A stretch of DNA of 40,561 bases from a virus. The first letter of the stretch is position 1. Every line of letters starts with the position of its first letter. The notes under the pieces were generated by a model. It had not been told where the DNA came from, ran no database searches, and was given only the letters and a program-made list of their open reading frames with translations. A program made the position numbers and the translations under genes. The stretch lies in UHGV virus genome UHGV-0150809; one strand, given 5' to 3'. Below are positions 3,863 to 33,694 of the stretch, one piece after another.

Positions 3863-3877
3863 ATTACCCATAAGGTA
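3863..3877. promoter_or_regulatory. Operator-like palindrome TTACCCATAAGGTAA at the leftward early promoter (OL-like)
   Basis: Perfect TTACC-N5-GGTAA inverted repeat between the repressor gene end and the first leftward early ORF. Confidence 0.45.
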
Positions 3878-3888
3878 ATCTTGATGGC

Positions 3889-3914
3889 AATAAAAAAGCC
3901 GCCATGAGGCGGCT
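3889..3914 (-). terminator. Rho-independent terminator downstream of the repressor gene
   Basis: On the minus strand a GCCGCC-tcat-GGCGGC hairpin followed by a T-run; approximate coordinates. Confidence 0.45.
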
Positions 3915-3935
3915 TACTTGCTGAAAACTATAGTT

Positions 3936-4520
3936 TTATTGTTTATTTTTTTCGTTCTGGTTGATGACAAATTCAATGTAACTTTCGATCTTTGCTTTCT
4001 CGGTTTCGGGTAACAATGCGTAGCGCGAGCGGTCATAGTTGATGGTCGCAGGGTCGTGCGGGTGAATCAGTAATTCATAGCCGTGACGCCCGAATGCGGA
4101 TGCAACATTCTCCAGGGTGGAAATGGAAACGCTGACTTCATTGTTTAACAGGCGGCTGATTGTCACCTGGGCGACGCCGGATGCGCGGTGAAGTTTTCCT
4201 TGTGTTGAAAGGTCGCGGCTTTCGCTCATCCAGCGTTCCAGGTTGTGAGCCGCCAGCTGACCAATGTCGCTTGGTCCGACAGGCTGAAAACCCTCCTGAG
4301 AAAGCGAGCGATCGATATCAAGCCAGTTACGTGGTTTATTGGCGGCAGCTTCAATTTTTCGCGCAACCTGGTCGCCGATAACCTTCTTGCCAAGAGCCCA
4401 GCGGTTTACCAGATTTGCCTGAGTTCCAAGTTTTTCTGCCATCCGCGTCTGAACACCATTGAATTCACGGTCGATCAAGTCGTTGAGATTTTGCCTGCGG
4501 ACGTCCTGGATACTTTTCAT
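3936..4520 (-). CDS. Phage repressor (CI-like) with two tandem HTH domains and no S24/LexA-like autopeptidase domain
   Basis: 194 aa; N-terminal HTH (GVQTRMAEKLGTQANLVNRWALGKK) and second HTH (ASGVAQVTISRLLNNE); no Ala-Gly/Ser-Lys peptidase motifs; divergent from the cro-like gene with an operator cluster between. Confidence 0.7.
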   Translation of the reverse strand: MKSIQDVRRQNLNDLIDREFNGVQTRMAEKLGTQANLVNRWALGKKVIGDQVARKIEAAANKPRNWLDIDRSLSQEGFQPVGPSDIGQLAAHNLERWMSESRDLSTQGKLHRASGVAQVTISRLLNNEVSVSISTLENVASAFGRHGYELLIHPHDPATINYDRSRYALLPETEKAKIESYIEFVINQNEKNKQ

Positions 4521-4575
4521 TTTCTGGAAAATCGTCTCATATATGAATCAGTAGATGATTCAATTTAAAGCAATA

Positions 4576-4638
4576 TTACCCAACAGGTAAATGCACCTCA
4601 TAGGTAACTATCCTTGATTTTTGTTACCTTATGGGTGA
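4576..4638. promoter_or_regulatory. Tripartite operator cluster between repressor and cro (OR-like): 4576-4590 TTACCCAACAGGTAA, 4593-4607 GCACCTCATAGGTAA, 4624-4638 TTACCTTATGGGTGA
   Basis: Three adjacent copies of the palindrome seen directly in the divergent intergenic region; a TTGATT -35-like hexamer at 4614-4619 places the rightward promoter over the third site. Confidence 0.5.
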
Positions 4639-4674
4639 ATATTTATTATCTGAAATAAATATCAGGCAATAGCT

Positions 4675-4905
4675 ATGAGCGATAACGGACATTTCGATTT
4701 CAAAAAGCACTGGCTTGCACTTACTCCGGATGAGCGTGAAGCCTTCGCACAGGAAGCCGGAACGACGAGTCACTATATCCAGACTCACTTAACAGGTAAG
4801 CGCAAAATGCCAGGTAAAGTATTGATGAATGGGCTTTTTAAAGCCTGTAAAACAAGACAATGGCTGCGCTCAAAAGCAGAACTGGCATACTTCTTCTACT
4901 CATGA
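4675..4905 (+). CDS. Cro-like / YdaS-like HTH regulator
   Basis: 76 aa, divergent from the repressor; HTH-like segment LTPDEREAFAQEAGTTSHYIQTHLTGKR. Confidence 0.6.
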   Translation: MSDNGHFDFKKHWLALTPDEREAFAQEAGTTSHYIQTHLTGKRKMPGKVLMNGLFKACKTRQWLRSKAELAYFFYS

Positions 4906-4927
4906 TATCCAGCTACAACCCTCTGTA

Positions 4928-4950
4928 GACCGCCACCCGGCGGTCTTTTC
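4928..4950 (+). terminator. Rho-independent terminator after cro (tR1-like)
   Basis: GACCGCC-accc-GGCGGTC hairpin followed by TTTTC. Confidence 0.55.
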
Positions 4951-5055
4951 ATATCTATTCGTACCTCAAAGGTAATAAAAAACCAAATCTGGTTGATCTT
5001 TTTTTTGTGTCAGCACAAAATAACCGTAATCCCAATACTAATAACAGGGCTTACC

Positions 5056-5256
5056 ATGGAAATCATTACACGTATTGATGCCGCAAAGCGCGGACTTAAA
5101 CGCTATTACACCGGAAAACAATGTAAGCACGGACATGACAGTGAACGCTGGGTTTACAACGGACACTGTGTTGAGTGCACCATGGAATCAAACCGTCGCA
5201 TCAGGGCAGAGATTAAGCAGATCATGATTAATTCCTCCCCACAACATTCAAGCTGA
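5056..5256 (+). CDS. Small zinc-binding protein in the cII position
   Basis: ORF track 4993..5256; preferred start MEIITR at 5056; CKHGH...HCVEC spacing suggests a zinc ribbon; function unknown. Confidence 0.4.
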   Translation: MEIITRIDAAKRGLKRYYTGKQCKHGHDSERWVYNGHCVECTMESNRRIRAEIKQIMINSSPQHSS

Positions 5257-5271
5257 TAGCGGAGATTAATC

Positions 5272-6087
5272 ATGAGCAGACATGCAACAGATTGGGCCTG
5301 GGAGACAGATCCAGGTAGCTCGTCATTAAAGCTCATACTGCTCTCGATGGCTGACAGAGCCGATGAATATAACCTCTGCTACCCCAGCATAGAACGCCTC
5401 GTTAAAGACACTTGCCTGAATAAAAAAACCGTGCAGGCCGGGCTTATATCGCTCATGAAAATGGGTCTTATTTCAGATACCGGAGAGAGAAAGGGGGCGA
5501 CGAAAAGAGTACGGGTTTTCTCTCTTAATATAACCAAAAACGGGAACATTAAAGGCGACCGGGAGGGGGGTAATGAACCCGAAAACGGTAATGAACCCGA
5601 AAACGGGAATATACCCAAAAACGGGATGTTGAATGATCCCAAAAACGGGATGTTGAATGATCCCAAAAACGGGATCCAGAACCAGTCATATAACCAGTCA
5701 TTTAACCAAGAGAGGGAGAGCAGGACAAAAAACGGGGATTCTGTGCATCATGACCCCGGCGCAAACAACGCCGTGATGAATAACTTTGTTCCTCCTGGTG
5801 GGCCAGGGCAATTAGGCAAATTTGTCATGCATGAACAATGGCAACCATCAGATGACTTTCTTCGGAAAAGCTCATTGCAGGGGATCTACCTGGACAGTCT
5901 GCCAACGGCACAGGAACTTGCAGAGTTCAGAATTTACTGGATGGCTGAGGGTAAGGCATACCATCAGGCACAGTGGGAGCAGAAGCTGGCAAGGCGGCTG
6001 CAGATTAGCAGACAGAAGCAATCAACATTATCTGATAACAACGTTCCGCACTGGAACAGCCCTGAAGCATGGGAGGATTTCTTGTGA
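5272..6087 (+). CDS. Replication initiator, lambda O-like, with ori iterons embedded in the coding sequence
   Basis: GGAG RBS; N-terminal HTH-like region (SIERLVKDTCLNKKTVQAGL); internal peptide repeats GNEPENGNEPENG / MLNDPKNGMLNDPKNG encoded by DNA iterons; immediately followed by a lambda P homolog. Confidence 0.65.
   Translation: MSRHATDWAWETDPGSSSLKLILLSMADRADEYNLCYPSIERLVKDTCLNKKTVQAGLISLMKMGLISDTGERKGATKRVRVFSLNITKNGNIKGDREGGNEPENGNEPENGNIPKNGMLNDPKNGMLNDPKNGIQNQSYNQSFNQERESRTKNGDSVHHDPGANNAVMNNFVPPGGPGQLGKFVMHEQWQPSDDFLRKSSLQGIYLDSLPTAQELAEFRIYWMAEGKAYHQAQWEQKLARRLQISRQKQSTLSDNNVPHWNSPEAWEDFL
5534..5680. repeat. Replication-origin iterons (about six direct repeats, core AAAACGG(G/T)A) inside the O-like gene
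   Basis: Direct repeats visible in sequence (aacccgaaaacggtaatg x2, atcccaaaaacgggatgttgaatg x2, plus variants), followed by a short direct repeat accagtcat(a/t)taacca; matches the lambda ori-in-O arrangement. Confidence 0.6.
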
Positions 6088-6869
6088 ACAACGTTTTTAC
6101 CGCGATACAAAACCGTGACGGAGAAGCCCTTTCTCGCATGTCAGGTTATGAGCATCAGTACACCAACAATGACAACGTGGTGAACATGTCAGCAGAGAGG
6201 CTTGTTGATGCCCTTTTCAAACAGCTGAAACAACTGTTTCCGGCGGCAGTGGTAACCAACCTGAAGACGCCAGAGCAGGAAGTTGCTGCAAAACAGCAGT
6301 GGATTGCTGCGTTTGCCGAAGGGGGGATCCGAACCCGTGAACAGGTTTCTGCTGGTATGCGCCACGCCCGCGCCAGTGAATCTCCGTTCTGGCCGTCGCC
6401 AGGGCAATTCATCAAGTGGTGTAAAGACAGCAAGATGGTTCTTGGCGTCACCATTGACGATGTGATGGCGGAGTTTCACCGGTACAGCAAGGAAAAAAGT
6501 TTATATCCTGGTGGTCCCGAAAGATTCCCGTGGCGACATCCGGTTATGTACTGGGTCGTATGTGATACCCGCCGTGCAATGTATCAGCGCCAGCTTAGCG
6601 AGATTGAGGTTGAGAAACACGCGCGCAGGCTGCTCGATGATTGGGCGAAAAAGGTGGCTTCCGGACAGCAGATACCCGATCCGGTGATCAGCATACAGGC
6701 AAAGCCAGAACCCATGAGTACGCCTCCGGACACAGGGAGAGACGTTTACCATCCACCAGGGCGAAGTTTCGGGTGCATGCCTAACGCCGCCACCCTTGGG
6801 GGAATAACACCGGCGCAGTGGCTGATGGAGGAATACAGGCGGGGAAAGGCGTCAGGATTTATCAAGTAA
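6084..6869 (+). CDS. Replication protein P-like (helicase loader)
   Basis: Strong similarity by eye to lambda P (QQWIAAFAEGGIRTREQVSAGMRHARASESPFWPSPGQFIKWCK vs lambda RQWVLAFRENGITTMEQVNAGMRVARRQNRPFLPSPGQFVAWCR). Preferred start is GTG 6084 after GGAGGA, overlapping the O stop; the ATG at 6069 is the alternative. Confidence 0.8.
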   Translation: MNNVFTAIQNRDGEALSRMSGYEHQYTNNDNVVNMSAERLVDALFKQLKQLFPAAVVTNLKTPEQEVAAKQQWIAAFAEGGIRTREQVSAGMRHARASESPFWPSPGQFIKWCKDSKMVLGVTIDDVMAEFHRYSKEKSLYPGGPERFPWRHPVMYWVVCDTRRAMYQRQLSEIEVEKHARRLLDDWAKKVASGQQIPDPVISIQAKPEPMSTPPDTGRDVYHPPGRSFGCMPNAATLGGITPAQWLMEEYRRGKASGFIK

Positions 6870-6906
6870 TACCAGCGCGATAGCGCATTTTTTTACGTCT
6901 CGATAA

Positions 6907-6983
6907 TTACCTTAGAGGTAATAAAATATTCTAAAATCTATTGATTTCGTGTCTTATGTGGTTTTTAATTACCTAAGGGGTAA
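6907..6983. promoter_or_regulatory. Two operator-like palindromes (6907-6921 TTACCTTAGAGGTAA; 6969-6983 TTACCTAAGGGGTAA) upstream of the gene at 6987
   Basis: Perfect TTACC-N5-GGTAA copies in the P-to-next-gene gap; the second overlaps the RBS. Confidence 0.4.
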
Positions 6984-6986
6984 ATC

Positions 6987-7331
6987 ATGAGAAAACAGAT
7001 ACAGGCTCTTGGTCGACTCAAAACAGGCCAGATGAACAAAACAGAATCTGCGTATTGCCAGCACCTTGAGCTGCGTAAACGTGCAGGAGAAATCGTCTGG
7101 TATCGATTTGAGGGTATCAAGCTGCGGTTAGCTGACAACACGTTCTATACGCCCGATTTTGCTGTGATGCTCGCCACCGGCGAGATGGAACTGCACGAAG
7201 TGAAAGGTTTCTGGAGCGACGACGCCAGGGTGAAAACCAAAGTCGCCGCAGATCAGTATCCGTTCCGAATCATCGGGGTAACGGTTAAACCAAAGAAAGC
7301 AGGTGGTGGCTGGAACATCGAAAAGTTCTGA
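6987..7331 (+). CDS. DUF1064-like small phage protein (possible PD-(D/E)xK-fold nuclease)
   Basis: 114 aa; FYTPDF...ELHEVKG pattern recalled from DUF1064-type phage proteins; assignment from memory only. Confidence 0.45.
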   Translation: MRKQIQALGRLKTGQMNKTESAYCQHLELRKRAGEIVWYRFEGIKLRLADNTFYTPDFAVMLATGEMELHEVKGFWSDDARVKTKVAADQYPFRIIGVTVKPKKAGGGWNIEKF

Positions 7332-7392
7332 ATCGACGATCTTTTTAGTTATCAATGTAATCAATAAGTTATGTGGATAAGCGAGGGTAAAG

Positions 7393-8004
7393 ATGGAAAG
7401 TATGGCTGAAGGTATGATCAAAGATTTAGTGGCATCAGGGCATGCGTTAGCTGACGACATGACAGGCGCACCATCCGTGCTTGTTCGCTGTTTGGCAGCG
7501 CAACTGGAAGTTCAGTTGGTGCGTGCTAATGAGCTGGCCGAAGACCACCAGAGAGCGATTGAGTCAATTAAGCAGGCTGATGCAGCTGTTAAGTTGGCAC
7601 ACGAGAAGTTTTCGACGCTGGCAGCGGAGAATGCGGGGCTAAAGGCGATATGTGATGACCGTCGCAGATTCATCATGAATGGGGTGCAGATGGGTTATAT
7701 CAAGGTGCCAGCAGCGGAAACAGATCCAGACCTTGAGACAATTCGCATTGCTATATCACCACAAAAGCCCATTCCAGCCACCGATGCTTTCCTGTCTGAA
7801 GTGCGGGCGCAGGGGGTGGATGCTGCTATAGAAGCTGCAAAAAATCTGGTGGCCCAAGAATATGAGTATAAGGATTTCAAAGCGGCGCAGAGTGATTGCT
7901 GTATGCACCCTGGTTCAGACCTGGTAGGGAAGGTTGAAATGACTGAGTGGTTAGTTGACTTTGCTGCCCAGCTTCGCAAAGGAGGCACCAGTGAGCGAGA
8001 TTGA
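7393..8004 (+). CDS. Hypothetical protein
   Basis: 203-aa ORF with GAGGGTAAAG RBS; no recognised motif. Confidence 0.45.
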   Translation: MESMAEGMIKDLVASGHALADDMTGAPSVLVRCLAAQLEVQLVRANELAEDHQRAIESIKQADAAVKLAHEKFSTLAAENAGLKAICDDRRRFIMNGVQMGYIKVPAAETDPDLETIRIAISPQKPIPATDAFLSEVRAQGVDAAIEAAKNLVAQEYEYKDFKAAQSDCCMHPGSDLVGKVEMTEWLVDFAAQLRKGGTSERD

Positions 8005-8683
8005 CTATCAGGCGTTGCGTAAGGCAGCACAAAACTATCAATCGACTCTGGCGTGGTATCAGGAAAAGCCAGACAGTCCAAACGCTGAACAGGATTGTGA
8101 TGCAGCTTTAGCGGCGTTTAAGCGAGAAATCCGTCATCGGGAAGTGGACATTATCGCCGGGCTGTTGGATGAGCTGGACGAAAAACAGCAATACATCAAA
8201 CTCCGCGACCAGGAGAACGAGGATATTGCGCTAACGGTAGGGAAGCTGCGTGTTGAGCTGGAAGCAACAGAGAACAACCTTATTGATAGTGAATGCCATG
8301 TTGCTGAACTGGAAGAAGCGCTACGCGATAAGCAGGTGTTACTTGAAGCCTCAGAAAAGCGCAACGCAAAATTACAAAGCGAGAATGCATACATCCGCAA
8401 CCGGTTCAAAGAACTGGACCTGTTAATCGGGAAAAACATTCTGGTCATGCAGGCTGCCATTATCGAATGGCAGGCAACTGGCGACGCTAAGAGCGGACTG
8501 GCATGGATTTATAACACACTGTTTGGCCCAGGCGAATTGCCGGACGAATCTGAGCAAGATGCTCAGGCCTACTTTAATCGCAAATATGCACCGATTGACG
8601 AAAAGCTTATGGCGCTTCACAAGTGGTTTTGGGAACAAAGTGAAGCCGAGCGCGCCGCTGGCATCAAGGAGGAGTCTGAGTGA
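7991..8683 (+). CDS. Hypothetical coiled-coil protein
   Basis: ORF track 7955..8683; preferred start GTG 7991 after GGAGG, overlapping the upstream stop; central heptad-like Glu/Leu-rich segment. Confidence 0.45.
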   Translation: MSEIDYQALRKAAQNYQSTLAWYQEKPDSPNAEQDCDAALAAFKREIRHREVDIIAGLLDELDEKQQYIKLRDQENEDIALTVGKLRVELEATENNLIDSECHVAELEEALRDKQVLLEASEKRNAKLQSENAYIRNRFKELDLLIGKNILVMQAAIIEWQATGDAKSGLAWIYNTLFGPGELPDESEQDAQAYFNRKYAPIDEKLMALHKWFWEQSEAERAAGIKEESE

Positions 8684-9174
8684 TGGTCATTTCACCTATA
8701 ACGCTGAAAGCGGCGCAGGAATTTATCGCACAGCACCACCGACACAATAAACCACCAGTGGGGCATAAATTCAGCATTGGTCTGAGAAATAATGCCGGAG
8801 AATTGATAGGTGTGGCGACAGCTGGTCGACCTGTTGCACGACATTTCGACGATGGATTAACGCTTGAAGTAAATCGCACATGTACCACAGGAGAACGCAA
8901 CGCTAACAGCGCGCTTTATGGTGCTATCTGGCGGGCAGCAAAAGCTATGGGTTATCAACGTTGTATTACGTACACCCAGGCAGATGAATCAGGAGCATCT
9001 CTTCGCGCAGCTGGTTTTGTTCGTGTGAAAGAGCTTCCTCCAAGAAAAAGCTGGGCGGAATCAAGCGTCGCCCTGCGGAGTAAACGCGATCCGGTCGGAA
9101 ACGGTGGTATTCCTCGTGTGCTCTGGGAAATCAGGAGAATGAGTACCACTGGCATTCGCATCAAAGGAGAGTGA
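8683..9174 (+). CDS. Hypothetical protein, possible acyltransferase (GNAT)-like fold
   Basis: 163 aa from the ATG at 8683 (AGGAGG RBS); pattern of alternating strand/helix segments suggests a GNAT-like fold; weak, memory-based. Confidence 0.35.
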   Translation: MVISPITLKAAQEFIAQHHRHNKPPVGHKFSIGLRNNAGELIGVATAGRPVARHFDDGLTLEVNRTCTTGERNANSALYGAIWRAAKAMGYQRCITYTQADESGASLRAAGFVRVKELPPRKSWAESSVALRSKRDPVGNGGIPRVLWEIRRMSTTGIRIKGE

Positions 9175-9175
9175 T

Positions 9176-9463
9176 ATGGCAACTTTGCAGGAATTAATCG
9201 ACCTGACGCCAGAACAGGAAAAAGCGTGGAATCGCCTTGTGAAGGCTGTAAAGGATTTCAGGGCAGCCGGAGGAAAGTTTTATAGCGTCCTGGACACGCT
9301 GAGCGCATACAACGGCGAGCACGTTGCCAGCATTGATAACGATAAGGGCTACCACACTGCAAGCGTCTATATGCCTAGCATTGATGCGCCAGGGCTAACC
9401 AGTTGGGCTGATGATTGGCACGGCATCACGCTGAAAGATGGCGTTGAAGTGGATGAGGACTAA
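9176..9463 (+). CDS. Hypothetical protein
   Basis: 95-aa ORF with AAAGGAGAG RBS. Confidence 0.45.
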   Translation: MATLQELIDLTPEQEKAWNRLVKAVKDFRAAGGKFYSVLDTLSAYNGEHVASIDNDKGYHTASVYMPSIDAPGLTSWADDWHGITLKDGVEVDED

Positions 9464-9466
9464 CAC

Positions 9467-10153
9467 ATGACAACTTTCACCGACAAAGAACTGATTAAAG
9501 AAATCAGAGAGCGAATCGGCAGCCTGGACGTGCGAGACAATATTGAGCGCCTGGCTTATGAAATCGCACTGGCATCGCTGGCAGCAGTATCGGATGAACG
9601 AGCAGCCTATGAATTATTTATGGAGAAGCGTTTCGGGGAATCTGTAGATCGCCGTAGGGCAAAAAATGGCGATAGAGAATACATGGCATGGGATATGGCG
9701 CTTGGCTGGATTATCTGGTGTCACCGCGCCGCCATGCTTCAGGGTAGCCAACCTGTAAGCCAAACTTACAACTTGCCAGAATTAATCGAAGGCATGGAAG
9801 TTTCCATTGATGTAAGCACTTGTGATGCTGATTTAGGTAATCGCTATTTCGGCACCGTCACCGAGGCGTTAGAACTTGATACAGCCAAGAATGGTTACAT
9901 CCTCCTGGTTCAGGACGCAGAGCCAAACTTCGATGTAAATGGCAACTATCCGGTAATTCCGGATGGTTGGATAAGCTGTAGTGAGCGAATGCCCCCTCAA
10001 GATGATTGGATTTTAATTTATTCAAAGCACGGCGAGTATATGGCAGGACAGGTGCAAGGGGAATACGTGGAGTTGAGCGACGGCACTTTATCGTGGTTAG
10101 GGAACGTCTTGTTCTGGATGACGTTGCCAGAACCTCCGAAGGGGGCGAAATGA
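9467..10153 (+). CDS. Phage protein with C-terminal DUF551-like domain
   Basis: 228 aa; C-terminal WISCSERMPPQDDWILIY resembles the DUF551 signature common in enterobacterial prophage nin-region proteins. Confidence 0.5.
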   Translation: MTTFTDKELIKEIRERIGSLDVRDNIERLAYEIALASLAAVSDERAAYELFMEKRFGESVDRRRAKNGDREYMAWDMALGWIIWCHRAAMLQGSQPVSQTYNLPELIEGMEVSIDVSTCDADLGNRYFGTVTEALELDTAKNGYILLVQDAEPNFDVNGNYPVIPDGWISCSERMPPQDDWILIYSKHGEYMAGQVQGEYVELSDGTLSWLGNVLFWMTLPEPPKGAK

Positions 10154-10410
10154 TGGATGTAAAAGAGAAGGTTTTGCAGGTGATGCGTTCCCGGGCTGCC
10201 CTGCAAGATAAAGCTCTCGGCGGGGAATATCCATTCACGATAGCAACCTGGAATCTGCGGTTGGCAATGGAGAAGGAATTTCCTGATGAAGAATGGCGTT
10301 CGGCAGATTTGCGCAAAATTCTTATGGAGCTGGCTAAAGACGGAGCAGTATCCAAAGATACCTATGCCAGCCGGATTGGTCAGGCGGTATGGAGACTGGA
10401 GGTGCGGTAA
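10150..10410 (+). CDS. Hypothetical protein
   Basis: ATG overlapping the upstream stop (coupled); MMDVKEKVLQVMRS...; ORF track lists a longer out-of-context start at 10006. Confidence 0.4.
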   Translation: MMDVKEKVLQVMRSRAALQDKALGGEYPFTIATWNLRLAMEKEFPDEEWRSADLRKILMELAKDGAVSKDTYASRIGQAVWRLEVR

Positions 10411-10691
10411 TGGCTAACCTGCAACTTGCCGTCAAAGGTGAATACTTCGATGCCATGATTCGTGGAGAGAAAACGGAAGAGTATCGCCTGTGTAATGACT
10501 ACTGGAATAAGCGAATTATGTTCCGGGAGTATGACCGCCTGATTATCACAAAGGGATATCCGAAGCGCGACGATTCCAGCCGAAGAATTGACGTCCCGTA
10601 TGACGGATATGAAATCAAGACAATCACACATCCGCACTTCGGTGATAAACCGGTAAAGGTGTTCGCGATAAAGGTAAATATTGATGGCTAA
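10410..10691 (+). CDS. ASCH/PUA-like small protein
   Basis: Preferred start MANLQ at 10410 after GGAGG; KGEYFDAMIRGEKTEEYR resembles ASCH-domain N-termini; memory-based. Confidence 0.4.
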   Translation: MANLQLAVKGEYFDAMIRGEKTEEYRLCNDYWNKRIMFREYDRLIITKGYPKRDDSSRRIDVPYDGYEIKTITHPHFGDKPVKVFAIKVNIDG

Positions 10692-11022
10692 ATCAGCAGC
10701 AGAGCGCAAAGCCGCTCAGAGAGCCAGACAAGCTGCATCTGGTGTGCGTAAGCTGGAGATTGTGCTTGATGCTCAGGAAATTGAAATGCTGGAGCGTAAC
10801 TGTGCCACGCGTCGCCCCGGGCGTGCGCCTTACGAATTTGGTGAGTATATAGCGTTACTGATCCGCCAGGATGATGCACGCGTGCGCGGGCGTATAAAAT
10901 CGATCAGCAGAAAACGTTGCGGTAAGTGCGGCGAGAGAGTTCCAGTTAATTCATGCCCGTGTAATGGTGACTCGCAATGCTGGGTGACTAAAGGCTGGCA
11001 TGAAACGAAATTAATAGTGTGA
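10684..11022 (+). CDS. Ribbon-helix-helix plus C-terminal zinc-ribbon protein at the early/late junction (candidate late-gene regulator)
   Basis: 112 aa; RKLEIVLDAQEIEMLERN fits an RHH strand-helix; C-terminal CGKCGERVPVNSCPCNGDSQC cysteine cluster; last gene before the late promoter/terminator region. Confidence 0.45.
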   Translation: MAKSAAERKAAQRARQAASGVRKLEIVLDAQEIEMLERNCATRRPGRAPYEFGEYIALLIRQDDARVRGRIKSISRKRCGKCGERVPVNSCPCNGDSQCWVTKGWHETKLIV

Positions 11023-11030
11023 CATGTCAC
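11019..11030. repeat. 12-bp perfect palindrome GTGACATGTCAC, copy 1, overlapping the stop codon of the RHH-Zn gene
   Basis: Exact sequence read; identical copies at 13284-13295 and 30568-30579. Confidence 0.6.
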
Positions 11031-11071
11031 GAGTAGATTATGCATGATGAATTTGATGGATTTTGAATACT

Positions 11072-11097: not shown

Positions 11098-11140
11098 GCA
11101 TGGTACTATTACCACAACGGTAACAATTACCACGGTGGTT

Positions 11141-11737
11141 ATGATGCCTGCTGAACCTAAAACCTATAAACGCAAATCAACGCAATTTAAGCCGCTCACA
11201 GCAATGCAGGAGGCTTATTGCCAGTCATACATCAAAACGCCTGAAAACCAGACTCAGGCTGCGATTAACGCAGGATTCTCCCCAAATACAGCGGCAGTTA
11301 AAGCCAGTGTCATGATGCGCGATGAACGCATTCAGAAACGGATTGCCGAGTTGATGGAGGAGCGCAACAAACGAATGCGTGTCAGTGCTGATTACGTTCT
11401 CATGCGCCTGGTGGAGATCGACCAGATGGACGTGATCGACATCCTCAACGACGATGGGAGCCTTAAACCAATCCGTGAGTGGCCGAAAATCTGGCGCACT
11501 ACGCTTAGTGGCTTTGATCTGTCATCGACCATCATGAACATGAACGAGGATTCAATAGAGACAATCCTCAAAAAAATTAAATGGCCTGACAAGGTGAAGA
11601 ACCTTGAGCTGATTGGTAAGCATGTTGATGTCAACGCATTCAAAGAACGTCTGGATGTTAATGTGAATGTGACAATTGCTGATCGCATAGCAGCAGCCAG
11701 GAAGCGACTCAAAGAACGTCAGGATGGTAATCAGTGA
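11141..11737 (+). CDS. Terminase small subunit
   Basis: Position immediately upstream of the large subunit with overlapping stop/start; ORF track 11063..11737 would begin inside the terminator hairpin, so the MMPAEPKTY start at 11141 is preferred. Confidence 0.55.
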   Translation: MMPAEPKTYKRKSTQFKPLTAMQEAYCQSYIKTPENQTQAAINAGFSPNTAAVKASVMMRDERIQKRIAELMEERNKRMRVSADYVLMRLVEIDQMDVIDILNDDGSLKPIREWPKIWRTTLSGFDLSSTIMNMNEDSIETILKKIKWPDKVKNLELIGKHVDVNAFKERLDVNVNVTIADRIAAARKRLKERQDGNQ

Positions 11738-13209: not shown

Positions 13210-13259
13210 TCCGCTGGTGGGGATAATGTCGTTGATATCCTCTGATGAGGATAAAACAA

Positions 13260-13295: not shown

Positions 13296-13299
13296 TGCG

Positions 13300-13722: not shown

Positions 13723-13920
13723 AATCTCACCTTAAAAAAATGCCCGGCGAACCGGGCGAACTGGAAGCAATGAGTTATGCCTTCCGTGGCTGTACTGGTT
13801 TACAGCATGAAGTCATCGCAATGGCGTCCTGCTGTAAAAAGGGCGGTGATAGTCCTTCAAGGGAAACCATCACCGCCAAGCCCCTGGAACTTCTGGCATC
13901 ACGGTCCTTAGGCGTGATTC

Positions 13921-13997
13921 TGGCGTGGCATGCAGGATTCGAACCTGCGACCAACCGCTTAGAAGGCGGTTGCTCTGTCCAACTGAGCTAATGCCAC
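13921..13997 (-). tRNA. tRNA-Arg (anticodon UCU), argU-like
   Basis: Reverse complement folds as a 77-nt cloverleaf: acceptor GTGGCAT/ATGCCAC, D-arm GCTC-AGTTGGACA-GAGC, anticodon loop CTTCTAA, T-arm GCAGG-TTCGAAT-CCTGC, discriminator G and encoded CCA. Confidence 0.8.
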
Positions 13998-14319: not shown

Positions 14320-14334
14320 TTACCTGAAAGGTAA
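14320..14334. promoter_or_regulatory. Operator-like palindrome TTACCTGAAAGGTAA
   Basis: Perfect copy of the motif in the noncoding region between the tRNA and the connector gene. Confidence 0.4.
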
Positions 14335-14424
14335 TAATTCGCGCGTTAAATGTCAACTATCTACGATAAATAAATCATATGTGGTTAAATTGGTAATAAT
14401 TTAATTGCGTACGGAGTCATTGAT

Positions 14425-27930: not shown

Positions 27931-27935
27931 ATTAA

Positions 27936-30410
27936 ATGAGACAGGAATGTATACAAGCGGTCCAGCAGGCGGCGCAGCGCACGTTAACGGCGCGAGAAAT
28001 ACAGAACATTGAAGACCGCATTTATCGAAATATGCGCTCCATTGCTCGTGATGATCCGATGTCGTGGCGACAACTTTCCGAATCAGAACGGTTGTATCGT
28101 GCAGCACAATTGGCATCTGAAGAATTACAGCGAGAAGCGGCATTAAAGAAACGTCGTGTGGCTCTCACTATAGCCGCACGTCAGAGATTGGATAAATTTA
28201 TCAATAGCTATCAAGGGGCTGATGGGAAACTTGGCGCTCTTAACCGTACTATTGCTTTTAATGCAGACGGTAAATCGAATTTCCTCTCTGTTGAATCCAG
28301 AACAAAAGCCACTCGTGATTATGCATTGAGTCAATTGCAGGAGGCATTTGAAGCAGTTGATCCTCGCTTTTTTGGCCTGTTTGAAGATGAAGCTGGCGTG
28401 CGTGACCTGGTATATGAAATGCGAGGGCAAAATACTGGCAATGCTAAAGCAAGAAAAGGTGCTAAGGCGTGGAGAGAAGTGACAGAGCTACTGCGCCGCC
28501 GGTTTAATGATGCTGGTGGGGACATTGGCTATCTCGAAAACTGGGGGATCCCTCAACATCATTCTATGGAAAAGGTTGGGGCGGTATCAAAGGATAAGTG
28601 GGTTAGCGATGTTATAGGTAAGCTGGATCGCAAATATTATACCCGAGTCGATGGACAACTGATGAACGATGCCGAGTTGTCTGCATTTCTTGGAGAGGCT
28701 TATAACACGATCGCTACTGGTGGGCTGAATAAGCTTACTGATACCGGAATGCGAATTTCCGGCGCACGTGCTAACCGGGGTAATGCATCACGACAGATAC
28801 ATTTCAAAGATGCAGATTCCTATCTGCAATATCAGCAACTTTATGGCGATCGCTCTCTATGGGAAATCATGGTCGGTCACCTGGAAGGTATCAGTAAAGA
28901 TATTGCACTGGTGGAAACATATGGCCCAAACCCCGATCATGTTTTCCGCTCTCTTCTTGATCAGGTGAAGGCAGAAACGGCAACAGCTAACCCGAGTAAA
29001 ACCGGTAAAGTCGAGCGGCTGGCGAACAACACAGAGAATCTGTACAACTTTATTTCCGGAAAGACACAGCCTGTAGCGAATCCGCACATCGCGCGCTGGT
29101 CTGACAATATCCGCAACTGGCTGGTTGCCAGCCGACTAGGATCCGCGTTGCTGTCATCGTTCTCTGATCTTGGAACCATGTATCTGTCTGCGAAGGTGAC
29201 CAACCTTCCAATGAACCAGTTATTCCGCAACCAGCTTGAAGCTATGGACCCAACGAACCGTACTGAGCTTGCGCGGGCGCGCCGCGCTGGTCTGGCGATG
29301 GAATCTCTACTTGGCAGTGTTAACCGCTGGGCAATGGATAATATGGGGCCGTCTGTGTCTCGTTGGGCGGCAACGGCGGTAATGCGTGCCAGTGGGCTTA
29401 CAGCATGGTCAGATGCGCACAAGCGCGCCTATGGCGTAACAATGATGGGAAGCCTGGGAGAGGTAGTGTCACGGACACCAGACCTTCGTAGCCTCGATGA
29501 CTCTGATTTTCGTATCCTGAAAAGCAAAGGGATTACTGAAACAGACTGGAGCGTATGGAAGCTGGCGCAACAGGAGGACTGGGGGAACGGCAATAATACG
29601 ATGCTGACACCGGAAAGCATTATGCGTATCCCTGATTCAGCAGTTAAACATCTTGGTGAGCCTGAACGCGTGAAATTTGAGGCAATGCGTAAACTTCTCG
29701 GTGCCGTAACTGAAGAAGTTGATATGGCTGTTATTACACCGGGAGCACGTGAGCAACTGATAACCGGTTCTGGTATTCAGCGTGGAACATGGAAAGGTGA
29801 ATTAACGAGAAGTGTTTTCCTGTTTAAATCGTTCCCTATCTCGGTAGTTATGCGTCACTGGTCACGCGCTATGGGTATGCCGTCTGCTGGTGGGCGTGCG
29901 GCATATATTGCGACGTTTATTGCCAGTACGACCATTCTTGGCGCTTTGTCGCAGCAACTTAACGACCTTGCGTCTGGTCGTAATCCTCGCGAGATGACAG
30001 GAGAAGATGCTGCTAAATTTTGGCTTGGTGCTCTACTGAAAGGTGGTGGTCTTGGCCTTTACGGTGACTTTTTATTGTCAGATCACACTAGGTACGGAAG
30101 CGGCGCGCTGGCGTCGATGCTTGGCCCGGTAGCTGGTCTGGTTGATGACGTAGTGAAGATTGCTCAGGGCATACCGTTAAATGCTGTGGAAGGGAAGAGT
30201 GAGCAGACTGGTGGTGATCTGGTGAAGCTGGGGAAAGGTTTGATGCCAGGTGCGAATCTCTGGTACTTAAAGGCGGCTCTCGATCACATGATCTTTAACC
30301 AGATGCAGGAGTATTTTTCACCAGGCTATTTGCGTAAAATGGAGCAACGTTCGAAGAAAGAGTTTAACCAGACATACTGGTGGCGACCACAGGATGTCAC
30401 TCCGCAATAA
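27936..30410 (+). CDS. Internal core/ejection protein (gp16-like)
   Basis: 824 aa, last large gene of the structural block; assigned by order and size. Confidence 0.5.
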   Translation: MRQECIQAVQQAAQRTLTAREIQNIEDRIYRNMRSIARDDPMSWRQLSESERLYRAAQLASEELQREAALKKRRVALTIAARQRLDKFINSYQGADGKLGALNRTIAFNADGKSNFLSVESRTKATRDYALSQLQEAFEAVDPRFFGLFEDEAGVRDLVYEMRGQNTGNAKARKGAKAWREVTELLRRRFNDAGGDIGYLENWGIPQHHSMEKVGAVSKDKWVSDVIGKLDRKYYTRVDGQLMNDAELSAFLGEAYNTIATGGLNKLTDTGMRISGARANRGNASRQIHFKDADSYLQYQQLYGDRSLWEIMVGHLEGISKDIALVETYGPNPDHVFRSLLDQVKAETATANPSKTGKVERLANNTENLYNFISGKTQPVANPHIARWSDNIRNWLVASRLGSALLSSFSDLGTMYLSAKVTNLPMNQLFRNQLEAMDPTNRTELARARRAGLAMESLLGSVNRWAMDNMGPSVSRWAATAVMRASGLTAWSDAHKRAYGVTMMGSLGEVVSRTPDLRSLDDSDFRILKSKGITETDWSVWKLAQQEDWGNGNNTMLTPESIMRIPDSAVKHLGEPERVKFEAMRKLLGAVTEEVDMAVITPGAREQLITGSGIQRGTWKGELTRSVFLFKSFPISVVMRHWSRAMGMPSAGGRAAYIATFIASTTILGALSQQLNDLASGRNPREMTGEDAAKFWLGALLKGGGLGLYGDFLLSDHTRYGSGALASMLGPVAGLVDDVVKIAQGIPLNAVEGKSEQTGGDLVKLGKGLMPGANLWYLKAALDHMIFNQMQEYFSPGYLRKMEQRSKKEFNQTYWWRPQDVTPQ

Positions 30411-30419
30411 GGATGAGAA

Positions 30420-30560
30420 ATGATTGCTTTTATTCTTGTTGTGTTTGCGCTTGTTGCACTTGGCGTTATGAACCGTAAATGTATCATTGACGATGGCGAA
30501 TTTGCTGTTGCAGTTATTTTGATATTATCTGGTGTAGCAGGGTACATAGGCTTGTCATAA
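30420..30560 (+). CDS. Small hydrophobic protein (46 aa; not in ORF track)
   Basis: Hand-translated MIAFILVVFALVALGVMNRKCIIDDGEFAVAVILILSGVAGYIGLS; AAGGATGAG RBS; two predicted transmembrane helices. Confidence 0.3.
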   Translation: MIAFILVVFALVALGVMNRKCIIDDGEFAVAVILILSGVAGYIGLS

Positions 30561-30567
30561 CGTGAGC

Positions 30568-30604
30568 GTGACATGTCACAGGCCGCTTTCGCGGCCTTGT
30601 TTTT
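30568..30604 (+). terminator. GTGACATGTCAC palindrome copy 3 (30568-30579) followed by a rho-independent terminator (GGCCGC-tttc-GCGGCC plus T-run) ending the structural operon
   Basis: Read directly from sequence. Confidence 0.6.
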
Positions 30605-30665
30605 AACGAATGCCACCGCCGCCCGGGCGGGAATCCGCAGACACAAAAAAGCCCGCAACGCGGGC

Positions 30666-31211
30666 TTATTCCTTCCATTTATCAGAAAAAAGATCTTCTT
30701 CTAAAGGCATTGGTTCTGTTTTTGTTTTCTCAAAGAATTGATAACTGATAGTGATTGCTGCCTCTTTAAACTCTTCTTGCTCAGTTATGTTGTGGGCATC
30801 TGCGTCAACAAAAAACATAACCAGCGCATCACGATTGTGATTTACCGAATAAACTAAAAAGCAATCACTTGTTGGTATGCATTTTACTTGCACAGACGCT
30901 ATATTTTTCCATGCATCCCAAGATGATTTTTTACCAGTGTGTTTTTTATCACTATCTTCTGGAATATAGTCTTGGTTATCGACATGAGTATGCCTGACAT
31001 TTAGTTTAAGCATTTCTGTCGGACGAGCAAATGCAGCATCTTTACCAAGAGATGGATGGTATCCCGTTTTCCAATACTGGGTAAAGGCATCAGATACTTT
31101 CTTCAGCTCAAGATCAGATGCACAAAGGGCCGAGAAATTTTGCGTATGCAATACTCGACCCTTATATCTGACAATTTGATTTTTATCATTCTGCGACGCA
31201 GACGAACTCAT
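30666..31211 (-). CDS. Hypothetical moron protein (181 aa), possible YafO-family toxin-like C-terminal region
   Basis: ORF track 30666..31238; preferred start MSSSASQ at 31211 after AAGGAAA; AT-rich; the pattern LKLNVRHTHV...TSDCFLVY...ADAHN parallels a recalled YafO pattern (RVAHIHL...LVY...PHK); tentative. Confidence 0.45.
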   Translation of the reverse strand: MSSSASQNDKNQIVRYKGRVLHTQNFSALCASDLELKKVSDAFTQYWKTGYHPSLGKDAAFARPTEMLKLNVRHTHVDNQDYIPEDSDKKHTGKKSSWDAWKNIASVQVKCIPTSDCFLVYSVNHNRDALVMFFVDADAHNITEQEEFKEAAITISYQFFEKTKTEPMPLEEDLFSDKWKE

Positions 31212-31365
31212 AATTTTCCTTATTGTTACGAGAATCAAAGAAAGCGCGGGATACGCGACTTGCGTGATCTTTTGTCATAGTAACTTTTACGCACTCTACG
31301 CTTCCATTGAAAGAACGTCTTGCGGCAGCTTGCGCTCTACGCATCTGCAATTTTTCGTTTCGCAT
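31186..31365 (-). CDS. Small basic 59-aa ORF upstream of and overlapping the 181-aa moron gene (not in ORF track)
   Basis: Hand-translated MRNEKLQMRRAQAAARRSFNGSVECVKVTMTKDHASRVSRAFFDSRNNKENYEFVCVAE; GAGGTAA RBS 6 nt upstream of the ATG; overlaps the downstream start by 26 nt. Confidence 0.3.
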   Translation of the reverse strand: MRNEKLQMRRAQAAARRSFNGSVECVKVTMTKDHASRVSRAFFDSRNNKENYEFVCVAE

Positions 31366-31425
31366 GACATTACCTCATATCTCATAAGTTCATTACACGG
31401 ATTAATAAAAATGAAACCAATCCGT

Positions 31426-31467
31426 TTACCCTTGAGGTAATAGTACGCTATTCACCAACAGTCTGCA
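31426..31467 (-). promoter_or_regulatory. Candidate sigma70 promoter (-35 TTGCAG, 17-bp spacer, -10 TACTAT on the minus strand) with operator TTACCCTTGAGGTAA (31426-31440) just downstream of the -10
   Basis: Hexamers and spacing read on the reverse complement; operator is a perfect copy of the recurring palindrome. Confidence 0.4.
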
Positions 31468-31513
31468 ATCTGTACAGAATTATTTAAAGGCACATCCATG
31501 TGCCGCCGTTCTG

Positions 31514-32200
31514 TCAGAAGAATCCTGCTTTGTCGTTGATGTACTCCGCGTGCGTCTGGATATCACGCAGGCATTTGCTCACACCGACGATGTAGCAGAA
31601 CATGGTGGTCAGCTCTGCCGCCGCGCCCGATACGTCGTGCCCGTCTTCCTGTAACTGGTTCAGCAGATTCATCAGCAGTGAGTTCTCCGTCAGGCCGAGA
31701 ACACCAGACGGCGAGTGAATCAGGCTGCGGTAGCCGGGCTTCAGCGGGGCACTGTAGGTTTTGTTCTCTATCTTCATCGCCTGCATTACTGCTGACGCCG
31801 TGGCGTTGGCTACCTGGTCGGCAACCATCTTTATGCGTTCTTCCTGCGGGAGCGAGTTTTTAATGTAACTTCCGGTGCGGCGGATCTGAGGAAGAACCTC
31901 ACCTGTAACCCATTTACGAAAGCGGTAGGGGATAGTGCCTGGTGTCACCGCATCGCGGCAGCGGAGGATCAGTGTGTAGAGGCCTGACTCGTTGATAATA
32001 TTGGTTTCGCCTTGACGGCCTAAGTTAAATTTAGCCCTTTCATCATCATCAAGAGATTTTATTGACATAGTGGGGTTTGTCAGTTGAAGAGCTTTAATAA
32101 CGTCTTTGGCAACAAACCAAGGATTTCCATCAATAACAATGGCTCGAATGGTTGCCTCTGATTCAAAATGAAAAACAGATGGGGTTACGTTAGCAGTCAT
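31514..32200 (-). CDS. Antirepressor, Bro-N domain family
   Basis: Preferred start MTANVTPSVFHFESE at 32200 after AAAGGTGA; N-terminal ATIRAIVIDGNPWFVAKDVIKAL matches the Bro-N/KilA-N antirepressor signature; ORF track extension to 32353 lacks an RBS and is likely leader. Confidence 0.7.
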   Translation of the reverse strand: MTANVTPSVFHFESEATIRAIVIDGNPWFVAKDVIKALQLTNPTMSIKSLDDDERAKFNLGRQGETNIINESGLYTLILRCRDAVTPGTIPYRFRKWVTGEVLPQIRRTGSYIKNSLPQEERIKMVADQVANATASAVMQAMKIENKTYSAPLKPGYRSLIHSPSGVLGLTENSLLMNLLNQLQEDGHDVSGAAAELTTMFCYIVGVSKCLRDIQTHAEYINDKAGFF

Positions 32201-32466
32201 AGTGATCACCTTTGTAGTTAGGTTAATCACCACTACCGACGCCAATCGGTTGGTGGTGAACTGTGCAGGGTTGGCGTAACCGGCTACAAAGGACCCGGCG
32301 CACCTTTCGGTGCCCCCACACAGCCCACCATAGAATAGGTGCGCTTTACACATAAAAAAACCGCTTATGCGGCATATGTGCCTCTGTAGTAACCCGGGAC
32401 GCCAATCCCGGCACTGGCAAAATCCAGTGCCCGATTACTATGGCACAAGAGGAGTGCGATGTAAAT

Positions 32467-32574
32467 TTACCGCAAAGGTAATGATAAACGCGAAGAAATA
32501 TTAAAATCAACCGTATTTGGTTGATTGCGTTTAACGCTTGATCACCTGAAAGCAAGATATTACCTTTAAGGTAA
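32467..32574. promoter_or_regulatory. Two operator-like palindromes (32467-32481 TTACCGCAAAGGTAA; 32560-32574 TTACCTTTAAGGTAA) in the divergent region between the antirepressor and the zinc-ribbon gene
   Basis: Perfect motif copies; a weaker copy TCACCTGAAAGCAAG lies between them. Confidence 0.45.
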
Positions 32575-32594
32575 TGTTATTGTGAGGAAAAGCA

Positions 32595-33323
32595 ATGGAA
32601 GTTTTCTGGATAGTTGTTGGTGTGGTTGCGGTGATTATTTACGTTATCAACCAGAACAAGACTAAGATCTCTGATCGTACGGTCGTTAATCATAACAAAA
32701 CGATAAAGACCGAAGATGGGGAGATAACGATTAATCGTACACAGGTGATAGAACACACCTCTACTCAGTTTCAAAAAACTGGAGGTAATGCGCCTAATAT
32801 TTCCGCACCTCCTGCTTATGATAGTGCGGTAATCCAGACATATTATAAACAGCAGGAGTTAGCAAAAGAGAGGCAACTGATTCAGCCAAAGCCGTTTACA
32901 GCTGAGCTTCCACCTGGAGTGTCAACGCGTCCGGCATATCATGGAAGATTCCCTGGTGATGACATATCGTCTCAGTCATCTAAAAAAGCACCTCAGGCAG
33001 TATCAGAGCCAGCAAGAATACCTTCTGCATCGCCGCCAAAAGAAGAATCAGCTAACAGAGTTTCAAGTGGTAGCAAGCAGTGCTTGCGATGCAGAATAAA
33101 CCTTCCATATGAAAAATTCAGGAAATCGTCAAAAAATCCAGATGGATTGACTAAGTGGTGTGCAAGGTGTCTCGATGGCCCAAAGAATACACGCCATATG
33201 AAGTGGTGCCCAATTTGTAATGTCCGCAGAAAACGAACCAGCTTTTACCCTAATAATCAAAATGCGGACGGCTTAATGGCATGGTGCAAAACGTGCTGGG
33301 ATGAGCACAAAGCGAAACGATAG
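32595..33323 (+). CDS. Membrane-anchored protein with tandem C-terminal zinc ribbons
   Basis: 242 aa; N-terminal TM helix (VFWIVVGVVAVIIYVI), Pro/Ser-rich linker, then two repeats of C-x2-C ... DGL-x2-WC-x2-C (CLRCRINLPYEKFRKSSKNPDGLTKWCARC; CPICNVRRKRTSFYPNNQNADGLMAWCKTC). Confidence 0.5.
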   Translation: MEVFWIVVGVVAVIIYVINQNKTKISDRTVVNHNKTIKTEDGEITINRTQVIEHTSTQFQKTGGNAPNISAPPAYDSAVIQTYYKQQELAKERQLIQPKPFTAELPPGVSTRPAYHGRFPGDDISSQSSKKAPQAVSEPARIPSASPPKEESANRVSSGSKQCLRCRINLPYEKFRKSSKNPDGLTKWCARCLDGPKNTRHMKWCPICNVRRKRTSFYPNNQNADGLMAWCKTCWDEHKAKR

Positions 33324-33345
33324 GCCGCTCTTGCGGCCTTTAAAT

Positions 33346-33603
33346 TTACCGGGTTTGTTTTCGTAATTGTTCGGCACAATAGTCGAGATGTGTTTGCAGA
33401 TCCTGCATAGACATCTGTGAGCTGGTGACGTAGTTAATCAGTGCAGTCAGTTCGGCAAGTGGGCCATCGACATTAAATCCATCCTTATCGAGATCCCGGA
33501 GTAATTTCATCAAGTGCGATCCCTCCACCAGTGACCTGACGCCTCCCGGCGTGTGAATCCTTTCGGTAAATCCGTCTTCCAGTGGATAGTGATACTGCTG
33601 CAT
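33346..33603 (-). CDS. Short antirepressor-like protein, paralog of the C-terminal domain of the Bro-N antirepressor; candidate SOS-induced antirepressor
   Basis: Preferred start MQQYHY at 33603 after GGAGAAG; RIHTPGGVRSLVEGSHLMKLLRDLDKDGFNVDGPLAELTALINYV aligns by eye with SLIHSPSGVLGLTENSLLMNLLNQLQEDGHDVSGAAAELTTMFCYI of the 31514-32200 product; LexA box 22 bp upstream. Confidence 0.55.
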   Translation of the reverse strand: MQQYHYPLEDGFTERIHTPGGVRSLVEGSHLMKLLRDLDKDGFNVDGPLAELTALINYVTSSQMSMQDLQTHLDYCAEQLRKQTR

Positions 33604-33624
33604 CTTATCTTCTCCATGCAATAA

Positions 33625-33640
33625 CTGTATAAATATACAG
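33625..33640. promoter_or_regulatory. LexA (SOS) box CTGTATAAATATACAG
   Basis: Perfect CTGT-N8-ACAG with AT-rich spacer, overlapping a TATATT -10-like hexamer for the leftward gene starting at 33603. Confidence 0.6.
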
Positions 33641-33679
33641 TATCAAATAATTTGTTTGCTATCCAGCACGTTTTGCAAA

Positions 33680-33694
33680 TCACCTGAAAGGTAA
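33680..33694. promoter_or_regulatory. Operator-like palindrome TCACCTGAAAGGTAA
   Basis: One-mismatch copy of the motif about 40 bp from the LexA box, between the small antirepressor and the tail-fibre gene. Confidence 0.4.

Follow-up and report, generated by a model that had tools for sequence, protein, structure and literature searches.

A 15-bp palindrome, TTACC-N5-GGTAA, recurs along the viral DNA stretch UHGV-0150809 (40,561 nucleotides; hereafter the window, meaning the whole stretch analysed), both beside a repressor gene, rep, and far away from it. This raises the question of whether the palindrome is the operator of the phage immunity system and, if so, how much of the genome is placed under immunity control. 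The window is a phiV10-like Uetakevirus, i.e., an epsilon15-like podovirus, with ~97% identity to Escherichia phage phiV10 and its kin. For E. coli O157:H7, phages of this type are employed as reporters and in typing; prophages related to them are common in E. coli, Salmonella, Klebsiella and Enterobacter. We conclude, with a probability of roughly three in four, that 15 copies of the palindrome are operators of the immunity system, with the repressor Rep as the most likely binder and a Cro-like protein probably acting on the same sites in lytic growth.

Enrichment and conservation of the palindrome

A preliminary description of this stretch had proposed a motif scan against shuffled controls. 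Run here with 100 dinucleotide-preserving shuffles, the scan found the exact palindrome 10 times in the window (at 3802, 3864, 4576, 6907, 6969, 11109, 14320, 31426, 32467 and 32560), whereas the shuffles averaged 0.03 and never contained more than 1 exact site. Allowing one mismatch added 4624, 4961, 11127, 33680 and 36909, giving 15 sites against 0.63 expected. In an unbiased count of all 5-N(0-11)-5 palindromes of the window, this one ranks first with 10 copies; the runner-up has 4. With gene calls that follow annotated homologues, 14 of the 15 sites with at most one mismatch are intergenic, as is the two-mismatch site at 4593 (GCACC...GGTAA) in the rep-cro spacer, the only intergenic one among 22 two-mismatch matches. 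Even with an over-called set of open reading frames (ORFs) that makes the window 92% coding, 10 of the 15 sites still fall in the 8% of non-coding DNA.

The 14 intergenic sites with at most one mismatch, together with 4593, were taken as the 15 candidate operators, spread over 3.8 to 33.7 kb. A-C-C and G-G-T are invariant across them, the outer T/A positions vary, and the flanks share no repeat-like homology. The site at 36909 was dropped because it lies within a coding sequence and fits the expectation for one-mismatch matches; it is probably a chance match. We also discarded a terminator reading of the palindrome, as its 5-bp stem is too short. The list of about 12 sites in the preliminary description, all said to be intergenic, was essentially right, although its first position (3863) should read 3864 and it overlooked two perfect sites (3802 and 11109) and the one-mismatch site 11127. 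Its "weaker copy" at 4593 is kept as a candidate with two mismatches, at a position that is perfect in Salmonella and Klebsiella relatives.

The motif was found in every related enteric genome scanned, with 20- to 40-fold enrichment in syntenic places in phiV10, epsilon15, SPC32H/SPN1S, TL-2011b, Tyrion and Klebsiella BUCT711. The counts, with shuffle expectations, were:

phiV10: 14 sites with at most one mismatch, 0.65 expected
epsilon15: 15 sites with at most one mismatch, 0.56 expected
SPC32H: 18 sites with at most one mismatch, 0.67 expected; 10 exact
Tyrion: 15 sites with at most one mismatch, 0.51 expected
Klebsiella BUCT711: 13 sites with at most one mismatch, 0.36 expected
TL-2011b: 10 exact sites

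A Uetakevirus with a different repressor was sought and none was found, all 36 of the 36 related enteric phage records (a Pseudomonas phage excluded) carrying a Rep homologue. Six spacer regions were then aligned, each from five or six phages and together covering four host genera (Escherichia, Enterobacter, Salmonella and Klebsiella). The motif columns are invariant although the mean column identity of these alignments is just 60-78%. Spacing is conserved as well. A 62-bp pair of sites at the leftward early promoter PL is kept in the five aligned phages (63 in Klebsiella), and a second 62-bp pair precedes the gene that follows the replication genes, at a predicted promoter termed PR2, in five of five phages despite the gene itself differing (DUF1064 in the window, a RuvC-like resolvase in epsilon15 and Tyrion). 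Seven such sites carry the label "protein_bind", repressor, lysogeny in the epsilon15 record AY150271.2 (three of them at PL, the others before terS, before gp3/portal, in the gap from gp19 to the tailspike gene and before the gene following the replication genes), so that the dispersed-operator reading is already present in public annotation.

Candidate operators at predicted promoters and neighbouring genes

The placement of the candidate operators relative to predicted promoters follows a recurrent register, in which the operator takes the final T of a -10-like hexamer as its start, a -35-like hexamer lying 17-18 bp upstream. This arrangement is seen at 3802 (PL), 6969 (PR2), 32467 and 31426, and at 11127 before terS with a poor -35. 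A second register, with the -10 TACCTT inside the operator, occurs at 14320 (minus strand) and 32560 (plus strand). At these template promoters, at the rightward early promoter PR and at the internal early promoter past the cro terminator, a bound protein would sit where it blocks RNA polymerase. Together with the conservation across host genera and the epsilon15 annotation, this promoter-operator architecture speaks for the view, put forward in the preliminary description, of a dispersed regulon under the immunity protein rather than control of PL and PR alone; the scope given there was too narrow, and that Rep or the Cro-like protein binds the sites is what we infer.

The immunity region comprises left (OL) and right (OR) operators on either side of rep:

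3802..3816: operator OL-proximal, perfect; on the minus strand its start is the final T of the PL -10
3816..3844, minus strand: predicted PL, TTGACA-17-AATCAT; -35 kept in five phages
3864..3878: operator OL-distal, perfect; 62 bp from 3802
3936..4520, minus strand: rep, encoding a 194-aa repressor with an N-terminal helix-turn-helix (HTH) DNA-binding domain
4576..4590: OR site a, perfect; nearest rep
4593..4607: OR site b, GCACC...GGTAA, two mismatches
4624..4638: OR site c, TTACC...GGTGA; inside predicted PR (-35 region and spacer)
4614..4649, plus strand: predicted PR; TTGATT invariant in five phages; -10 AATATT or TATTAT
4675..4905, plus strand: cro-like gene, 76 aa; phrog_35 "transcriptional repressor"

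The three operators between rep and cro, with spacings of 17 and 31 bp, are kept in five phages, in agreement with the tripartite OR suggested earlier; the overlap of site c with PR is predicted from consensus alone. The single site formerly assigned to the leftward early promoter has to be replaced by the pair at PL.

Further operators lie within the early-right region and at the start of the terminase genes:

4961..4975: operator, GTACC...GGTAA; just past the cro terminator and ~60 bp upstream of the start point of the conserved promoter
4993..5021, plus strand: predicted internal early promoter before the replication genes, TTGATC-17-CAAAAT; kept in five phages
6907..6921: distal operator at the promoter before the DUF1064 gene, perfect
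6941..6969, plus strand: predicted promoter PR2, TTGATT-17-TTTAAT
6969..6983: proximal operator, perfect; 62 bp from 6907; begins at the last T of the -10 and holds the ribosome-binding site (RBS) of gene 6987
11109..11123: operator, perfect; immediately after the terminator closing the early-right operon
11127..11141: weaker operator, 18 bp beyond 11109; contains the terS RBS

An operator half-site abuts the -10 of the promoter at 4993..5021. Before terS, a -10-like AACAAT lies at 11127 (AATTAT in epsilon15 and Tyrion). Comparison with these two phages places the likely terS ATG at 11144; the annotated phiV10 terS start (record position 41, corresponding to 11063 in the window) spans the terminator hairpin and both operators.

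Two operators fall in the late region, in the following setting:

13921..13997, minus strand: tRNA-Arg (anticodon tct; Rfam and ARAGORN), downstream of the leftward promoter at 14320
14320..14334: operator, perfect; in the gap that separates the terminase/accessory-gene region from the head genes
14328..14356, minus strand: predicted leftward promoter facing tRNA-Arg, TTGACA-17-TACCTT; -10 within the operator; TTGAC invariant in six phages
14376..14398, plus strand: conserved late-promoter-like box before gp3/portal, CATATGTGGTT-N5-GGTAATA
33680..33694: operator, TCACC...GGTAA; between ant and the tailspike gene
33724..33746, plus strand: late-promoter-like box before the tailspike gene, CATATATGGTT-N5-GGTAATA

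The distance from the 14320 operator to the gp3 start is 105 bp in five of the six phages compared and 106 bp in Klebsiella BUCT711, and SPC32H carries a tRNA-Arg at the same place. The tRNA-Arg overlaps a mechanically called ORF (13740-13991, plus strand) that is the positional counterpart of the annotated hypothetical phiV10p04, so that the phiV10p04 coding-sequence call in phiV10 is doubtful and may be spurious. The late boxes represent a second conserved motif, CATATrTGGTT (core CCATATATGG), which always lies 23-56 bp downstream of an operator and may be a late-promoter or activator site. Weaker copies occur at 3825, 4984, 6953 and 32512; the full CATATrTGGTT-N5-GGTAATA is found in the window solely before the head and tailspike genes. 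From the operators at 14320 and 33680 to their late boxes downstream the distance is 56 and 44 bp, respectively, with no overlap, and GGTAAT is found again at the -10 of both boxes, 62 and 50 bp past the operator. In phiV10 and epsilon15 a related box with a TGTATAAT -10 precedes the holin operon, 47 bp past an operator, and TCACC/TTACC-N5-GGTAA is found upstream of the holin operon in phiV10, epsilon15, SPC32H and Tyrion. The region upstream of the window's own holin operon (36556-36775) contains just a GGTAA half-site and a degenerate late box, and has no O-acetyltransferase gene. When a fixed operator-to-box distance was looked for, the values varied (56, 44 and 47 bp). The late operators may serve divergent leftward promoters, act via weak half-sites or act positively.

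The remaining operators are found in the accessory cluster:

31426..31440: operator, perfect; its start is the final T of the -10 in the leftward promoter
31440..31468, minus strand: predicted promoter for a 59-aa gene (31186-31365) and a YafO-like gene (30666-31238), TTGCAG-17-TACTAT
31514..32209, minus strand: Bro-N antirepressor; its C-terminal domain (residues 150-226) is homologous to SPC32H Ant
32249..32335, minus strand: C4 antisense RNA (P1 immI type), 79.5 bits
32354..32430, minus strand: isrK-family RNA (Rfam)
32437..32465, minus strand: predicted second promoter, TTTACA-17-CATAGT; its expected start is the isrK 5' end, and it is free of operator
32467..32481: operator, perfect; 37 bp ahead of the isrK 5' end; its start is the final T of the -10 in the upstream leftward promoter
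32481..32510, minus strand: predicted operator-controlled promoter, TTGATT-18-TATCAT
32538..32566, plus strand: predicted promoter for the 242-aa gene 32595-33323, TTGATC-17-TACCTT; -10 within the operator
32560..32574: operator, perfect; 20 bp before gene 32595
33346..33621, minus strand: ant, encoding a 91-aa small antirepressor, a homologue of SPC32H Ant
33625..33640: perfect LexA box CTGTATAAATATACAG, 4 bp from the ant start; kept in six phages

The order operator, isrK, C4, antirepressor is also found in phiV10 and Tyrion, with different antirepressor genes. No operator was found at the isrK-C4 cassette of SfV, which sits inside the early-right operon of that phage. Ant aligns with chain E of PDB 5D50 (E = 5e-47, residues 8-90), and LexA control of ant in SPC32H was reportedly described by Kim and Ryu in 2013. 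As the Bro-N protein carries an Ant-like domain, the window encodes two Ant-type proteins, which would be under separate control, one by the LexA box and the other by an operator and RNAs. The preliminary description had located the sites outside PL and OR before moron, antirepressor and internal early genes. Some do lie there; others lie at the terminase start, the head and tailspike late promoters, the tRNA-Arg promoter and the replication genes after the cro terminator. An antirepressor is indeed downstream of 32467, which heads an isrK/C4 RNA-antirepressor cassette and not simply an antirepressor gene.

Several further features of these regions were noted. The isrK/C4 cassette (32249-32430, minus strand) resembles P1 immI and Gifsy-1 IsrK, and is also present in SfV, many Stx phages and APSE phages. 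The 59-aa and YafO-toxin-like genes (30666-31365, minus strand) stand behind an operator-covered promoter; a toxin-like module silent in the lysogen would be unusual prophage cargo. The C-terminal segment of the 242-aa protein (32595-33323, plus strand; phrog_6762) is like endonuclease VII and Lar-like zinc ribbons. Five relatives share a one-mismatch site (TTACC-N5-GGTAT, with the mirror ATACC-N5-GGTAA in Klebsiella) immediately ahead of the integrase gene (records L001 at 26870, L002 at 26882, L006 at 26960, L004 at 28568 and L007 at 12620); int lies outside the window.

Candidate binding proteins

Rep aligns over its full length with the non-cleavable Rep of SPC32H (PDB 5D50 chain A, phmmer; E = 4e-42, residues 1-190 aligned). 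No S24 peptidase (autocleavage) domain was found in it, Pfam giving HTH-type domains only. Its N-terminal domain is 54-56% identical to the Salmonella and Klebsiella proteins, compared with 39-43% for the rest of the protein, and the segment NLVNRW..G.K.IG...AR.IE is invariant. The Rep of SPC32H is described as a tetramer on palindromic DNA in which the DNA-binding pairs come from different dimers, and Ant, also a tetramer, as binding two Rep dimers such that the Rep tetramer is broken up (PMC9638917). A second study describes the SPC32H Rep C-terminal domain as p53-like and responsible for loop-forming tetramerisation, with middle-domain pairs ~100 Å apart (PMC9986798). Phage ZX5 has an identical Rep, and when this was overexpressed, transcripts of holin and endolysin fell by >99.9%, a result that fits direct or indirect control (PMC9782041).

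Comparison with more distant repressors is supportive but anecdotal. The cI of Pseudomonas phage PseuP_224 is LexA-type and shares 39% identity with Rep in the DNA-binding domain (E = 1e-12), and its gene is flanked by TTACC-N4-GGTAA (7 matches with at most two mismatches, three of them perfect, against 0.95 expected; record L008, 2422-2474 and 3297-3336); no similarity was detected between the PseuP_224 Cro and the Cro-like protein of the window. The DNA-binding domain of SfV cI is 34% identical to that of Rep and is accompanied by GTACC-N5-GGTAC at spacings of 17 and 33 bp (record L010, 661-725); the SfV Cro is weakly similar to the window's Cro-like protein. The gp52 of Burkholderia phage phiE125 has a divergent recognition segment and a different repeat. 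Searches of literature text for the motif string returned nothing relevant. From these comparisons, Rep appears to be the most likely ligand of the operators, which the Cro-like protein probably shares.

Five observations argue against operators bound by Rep at promoters throughout the genome. Firstly, all of the promoters are consensus matches, for which a generic promoter scanner showed no excess over shuffled sequence, and the promoter assignments are therefore drawn solely from register and conservation. Secondly, no convincing -35 could be found at terS. Thirdly, the 14320 and 33680 operators would be centred ~66-78 bp ahead of the likely start points, a location that does not correspond to classical occlusion. 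Fourthly, in phiV10 and epsilon15 an operator occupies the region where conversion genes, for which activity in lysogens is expected, have their promoter; the site (24692-24706 in L001, phiV10; 24704-24718 in L002, epsilon15) is 40-42 bp upstream of leftward oac and of epsilon15 gene 22, respectively. Finally, the Cro-like protein is as conserved across the four host genera as the DNA-binding domain of Rep, so that conservation cannot choose between the two.

The last point leads to the strongest alternative, namely that the 76-aa Cro-like protein is the ligand at the dispersed sites, where it would down-regulate or time lytic expression, with Rep acting at PL and OR alone. The protein belongs to a phage "transcriptional repressor" family and contains an invariant HTH-like segment (AGTTSHYIQ-HLT), its weak relative in SfV comes from a phage that shares the OR layout, and Cro and CI of lambda-type switches use common operators. 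We nevertheless consider this unlikely, given that in PseuP_224 the related repeat accompanies a Rep-type DNA-binding domain and a dissimilar Cro, that a tetramer with two DNA-binding pairs would fit the 62-bp spacing of the paired sites, and that the epsilon15 annotators assigned the sites to the repressor.

It is less probable still that the palindromes of the late operons (14320, 33680 and the holin site of the relatives) are activator sites, from which Rep, Cro or a late regulator, e.g., the phrog_536 protein (10681-11022), would aid RNA polymerase at CATATrTGGTT promoters. The non-overlapping location 44-56 bp upstream of a conserved late box would suit such a role, since CAP-like upstream activators work from the same ~66-78 bp upstream of the start point, and the operator at the isrK promoter is centred at ~-44, akin to the position from which lambda CI activates PRM. 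The unequal operator-box distances, however, leave no common helical phase at the late promoters, the placement of the 14320 operator, overlapping the -10 of a leftward TTGACA promoter that is strongly conserved, is that of a repressor site, and the region before the window's own holin operon is without a site.

Binding by a host protein, or recognition by a restriction-modification or methylation system, is very improbable. The phage encodes DNA methyltransferases, and bipartite 5-N5-5 sequences resemble some restriction-enzyme targets. Against this, the sites are confined to spacers, form a triplicate cluster between rep and cro, and keep a fixed register with promoter hexamers; the motif is retained in phages of four host genera and is enriched, whereas phages usually avoid restriction targets. 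A restriction-target reading was ruled out on enrichment, intergenic placement and register, and we know of no host regulator with a TTACC-N5-GGTAA consensus. The idea that the copies have no regulatory role, being due to chance or composition or left over from a small mobile repeat, has nothing beyond the in-gene match at 36909 in its favour and can be considered negligible in view of the shuffles, the top rank of the palindrome, the invariant islands in diverged alignments and the unrelated flanks.

A model of immunity control and its relation to known systems

In the model that we favour, in which Rep is bound to the operators, Rep would be a non-cleavable tetramer of the SPC32H type, with a pair of N-terminal HTH domains recognising the ACC-N5-GGT core of the operator. 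In a lysogen it would occupy the -10/+1 region or the spacer of the sigma-70 promoters that head most of the units with such a promoter. At PL and PR2, one tetramer may hold both operators, which at 62 bp (5.9 turns) lie on the same face of the DNA, and loop out the -35 region of the promoter. At the other loci the -10/+1 region or spacer would be covered by one operator alone or by two in tandem at a distance of 17-18 bp. The units controlled in this way would be PL, PR, the replication-gene promoter, the DUF1064 promoter, the terS start, the tRNA-Arg promoter, the YafO-like module, the 242-aa accessory gene and the upstream promoter of isrK-C4-antirepressor; single operators would also stand upstream of the head and tailspike late-promoter boxes (44-56 bp). 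In the isrK-C4 cassette, the upstream promoter would be shut while the downstream one keeps making RNAs that restrain antirepressor translation. Upon induction according to the SPC32H scheme, DNA damage would remove LexA from the ant promoter, Ant would disassemble Rep, and all units would open together, including the tRNA and the second antirepressor, which may reinforce the switch.

It is tempting to speculate further that this one repressor directly gates almost every unit via ~15 operators of a single template plus 62-bp looping pairs, that lysogeny is thus whole-genome direct repression and not a cascade, and that Rep may also act positively from ~-44 (isrK/C4) and from ~-66 to -78 (late promoters). 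We put this forward tentatively, as a possibility with the odds against it. A full operator map tells which genes the lysogen would keep silent, the tRNA, the YafO-like module and the second antirepressor among them, and explains how one antirepressor could turn on the whole genome at once. The conserved 62-bp pairs provide a compact, testable model of looping by a p53-like tetramerisation domain.

The closest known system is epsilon15, a member of the same genus with the same motif at syntenic positions (terS, gp3/portal, gp19 at the position of ant before the tailspike gene, PL and the post-replication gene). Its Rep is, however, only 42% identical overall, its record omits the three OR sites and the proximal PR2 site, and it lacks the sites of the window's accessory cluster at 31426, 32467 and 32560. 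The Rep-Ant switch of SPC32H (PDB 5D50/5D4Z) shares homologous Rep and Ant proteins, the LexA box before ant and the motif; the window differs by an extra, larger antirepressor, which combines Bro-N with an Ant-like domain and is preceded by isrK/C4 RNAs and an operator of its own. With lambda and SfV the window has in common three operators between a divergent repressor and cro, at spacings of 17/33 bp in SfV and 17/31 bp in the window. In contrast to lambda-type repressors, Rep is without an S24 autocleavage domain and depends on an antirepressor, and its operators extend far beyond OL and OR.

Outside this group, the operator-controlled promoter before a C4 antisense RNA and an antirepressor recalls P1 immI, which, in work attributed to Heinrich et al. 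in 1995, is said to have a C1 operator before c4-icd-ant. P1 also resembles the window in that a single repressor, C1, acts at many genome-wide operators at promoters of diverse genes, with 22 dispersed C1 operators (PMC8546580). The P1 operator is an asymmetric 17-mer, ATTGCTCTAATAAATTT (PMC8546580), whereas that of the window is a symmetric palindrome, and the window phage, unlike P1, integrates and is a podovirus. Cluster A mycobacteriophages such as L5 have 20-30 repressor sites genome-wide in short intergenic gaps; these stoperators are asymmetric, oriented with transcription and mostly off promoters, and they block elongation (PMC6550527). The sites of the window are instead symmetric, most of them on or beside promoter-like hexamers and several in fixed register. 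Since P1, L5-type phages and the epsilon15 annotation already provide examples of dispersed operators, the present analysis adds detail and testability rather than a new concept. The details that are new, and that we consider useful, are the register shared by promoters and operators, the 62-bp pairs with their conserved spacing, the predicted operator-controlled tRNA promoter and the operator-isrK-C4-antirepressor cassette.

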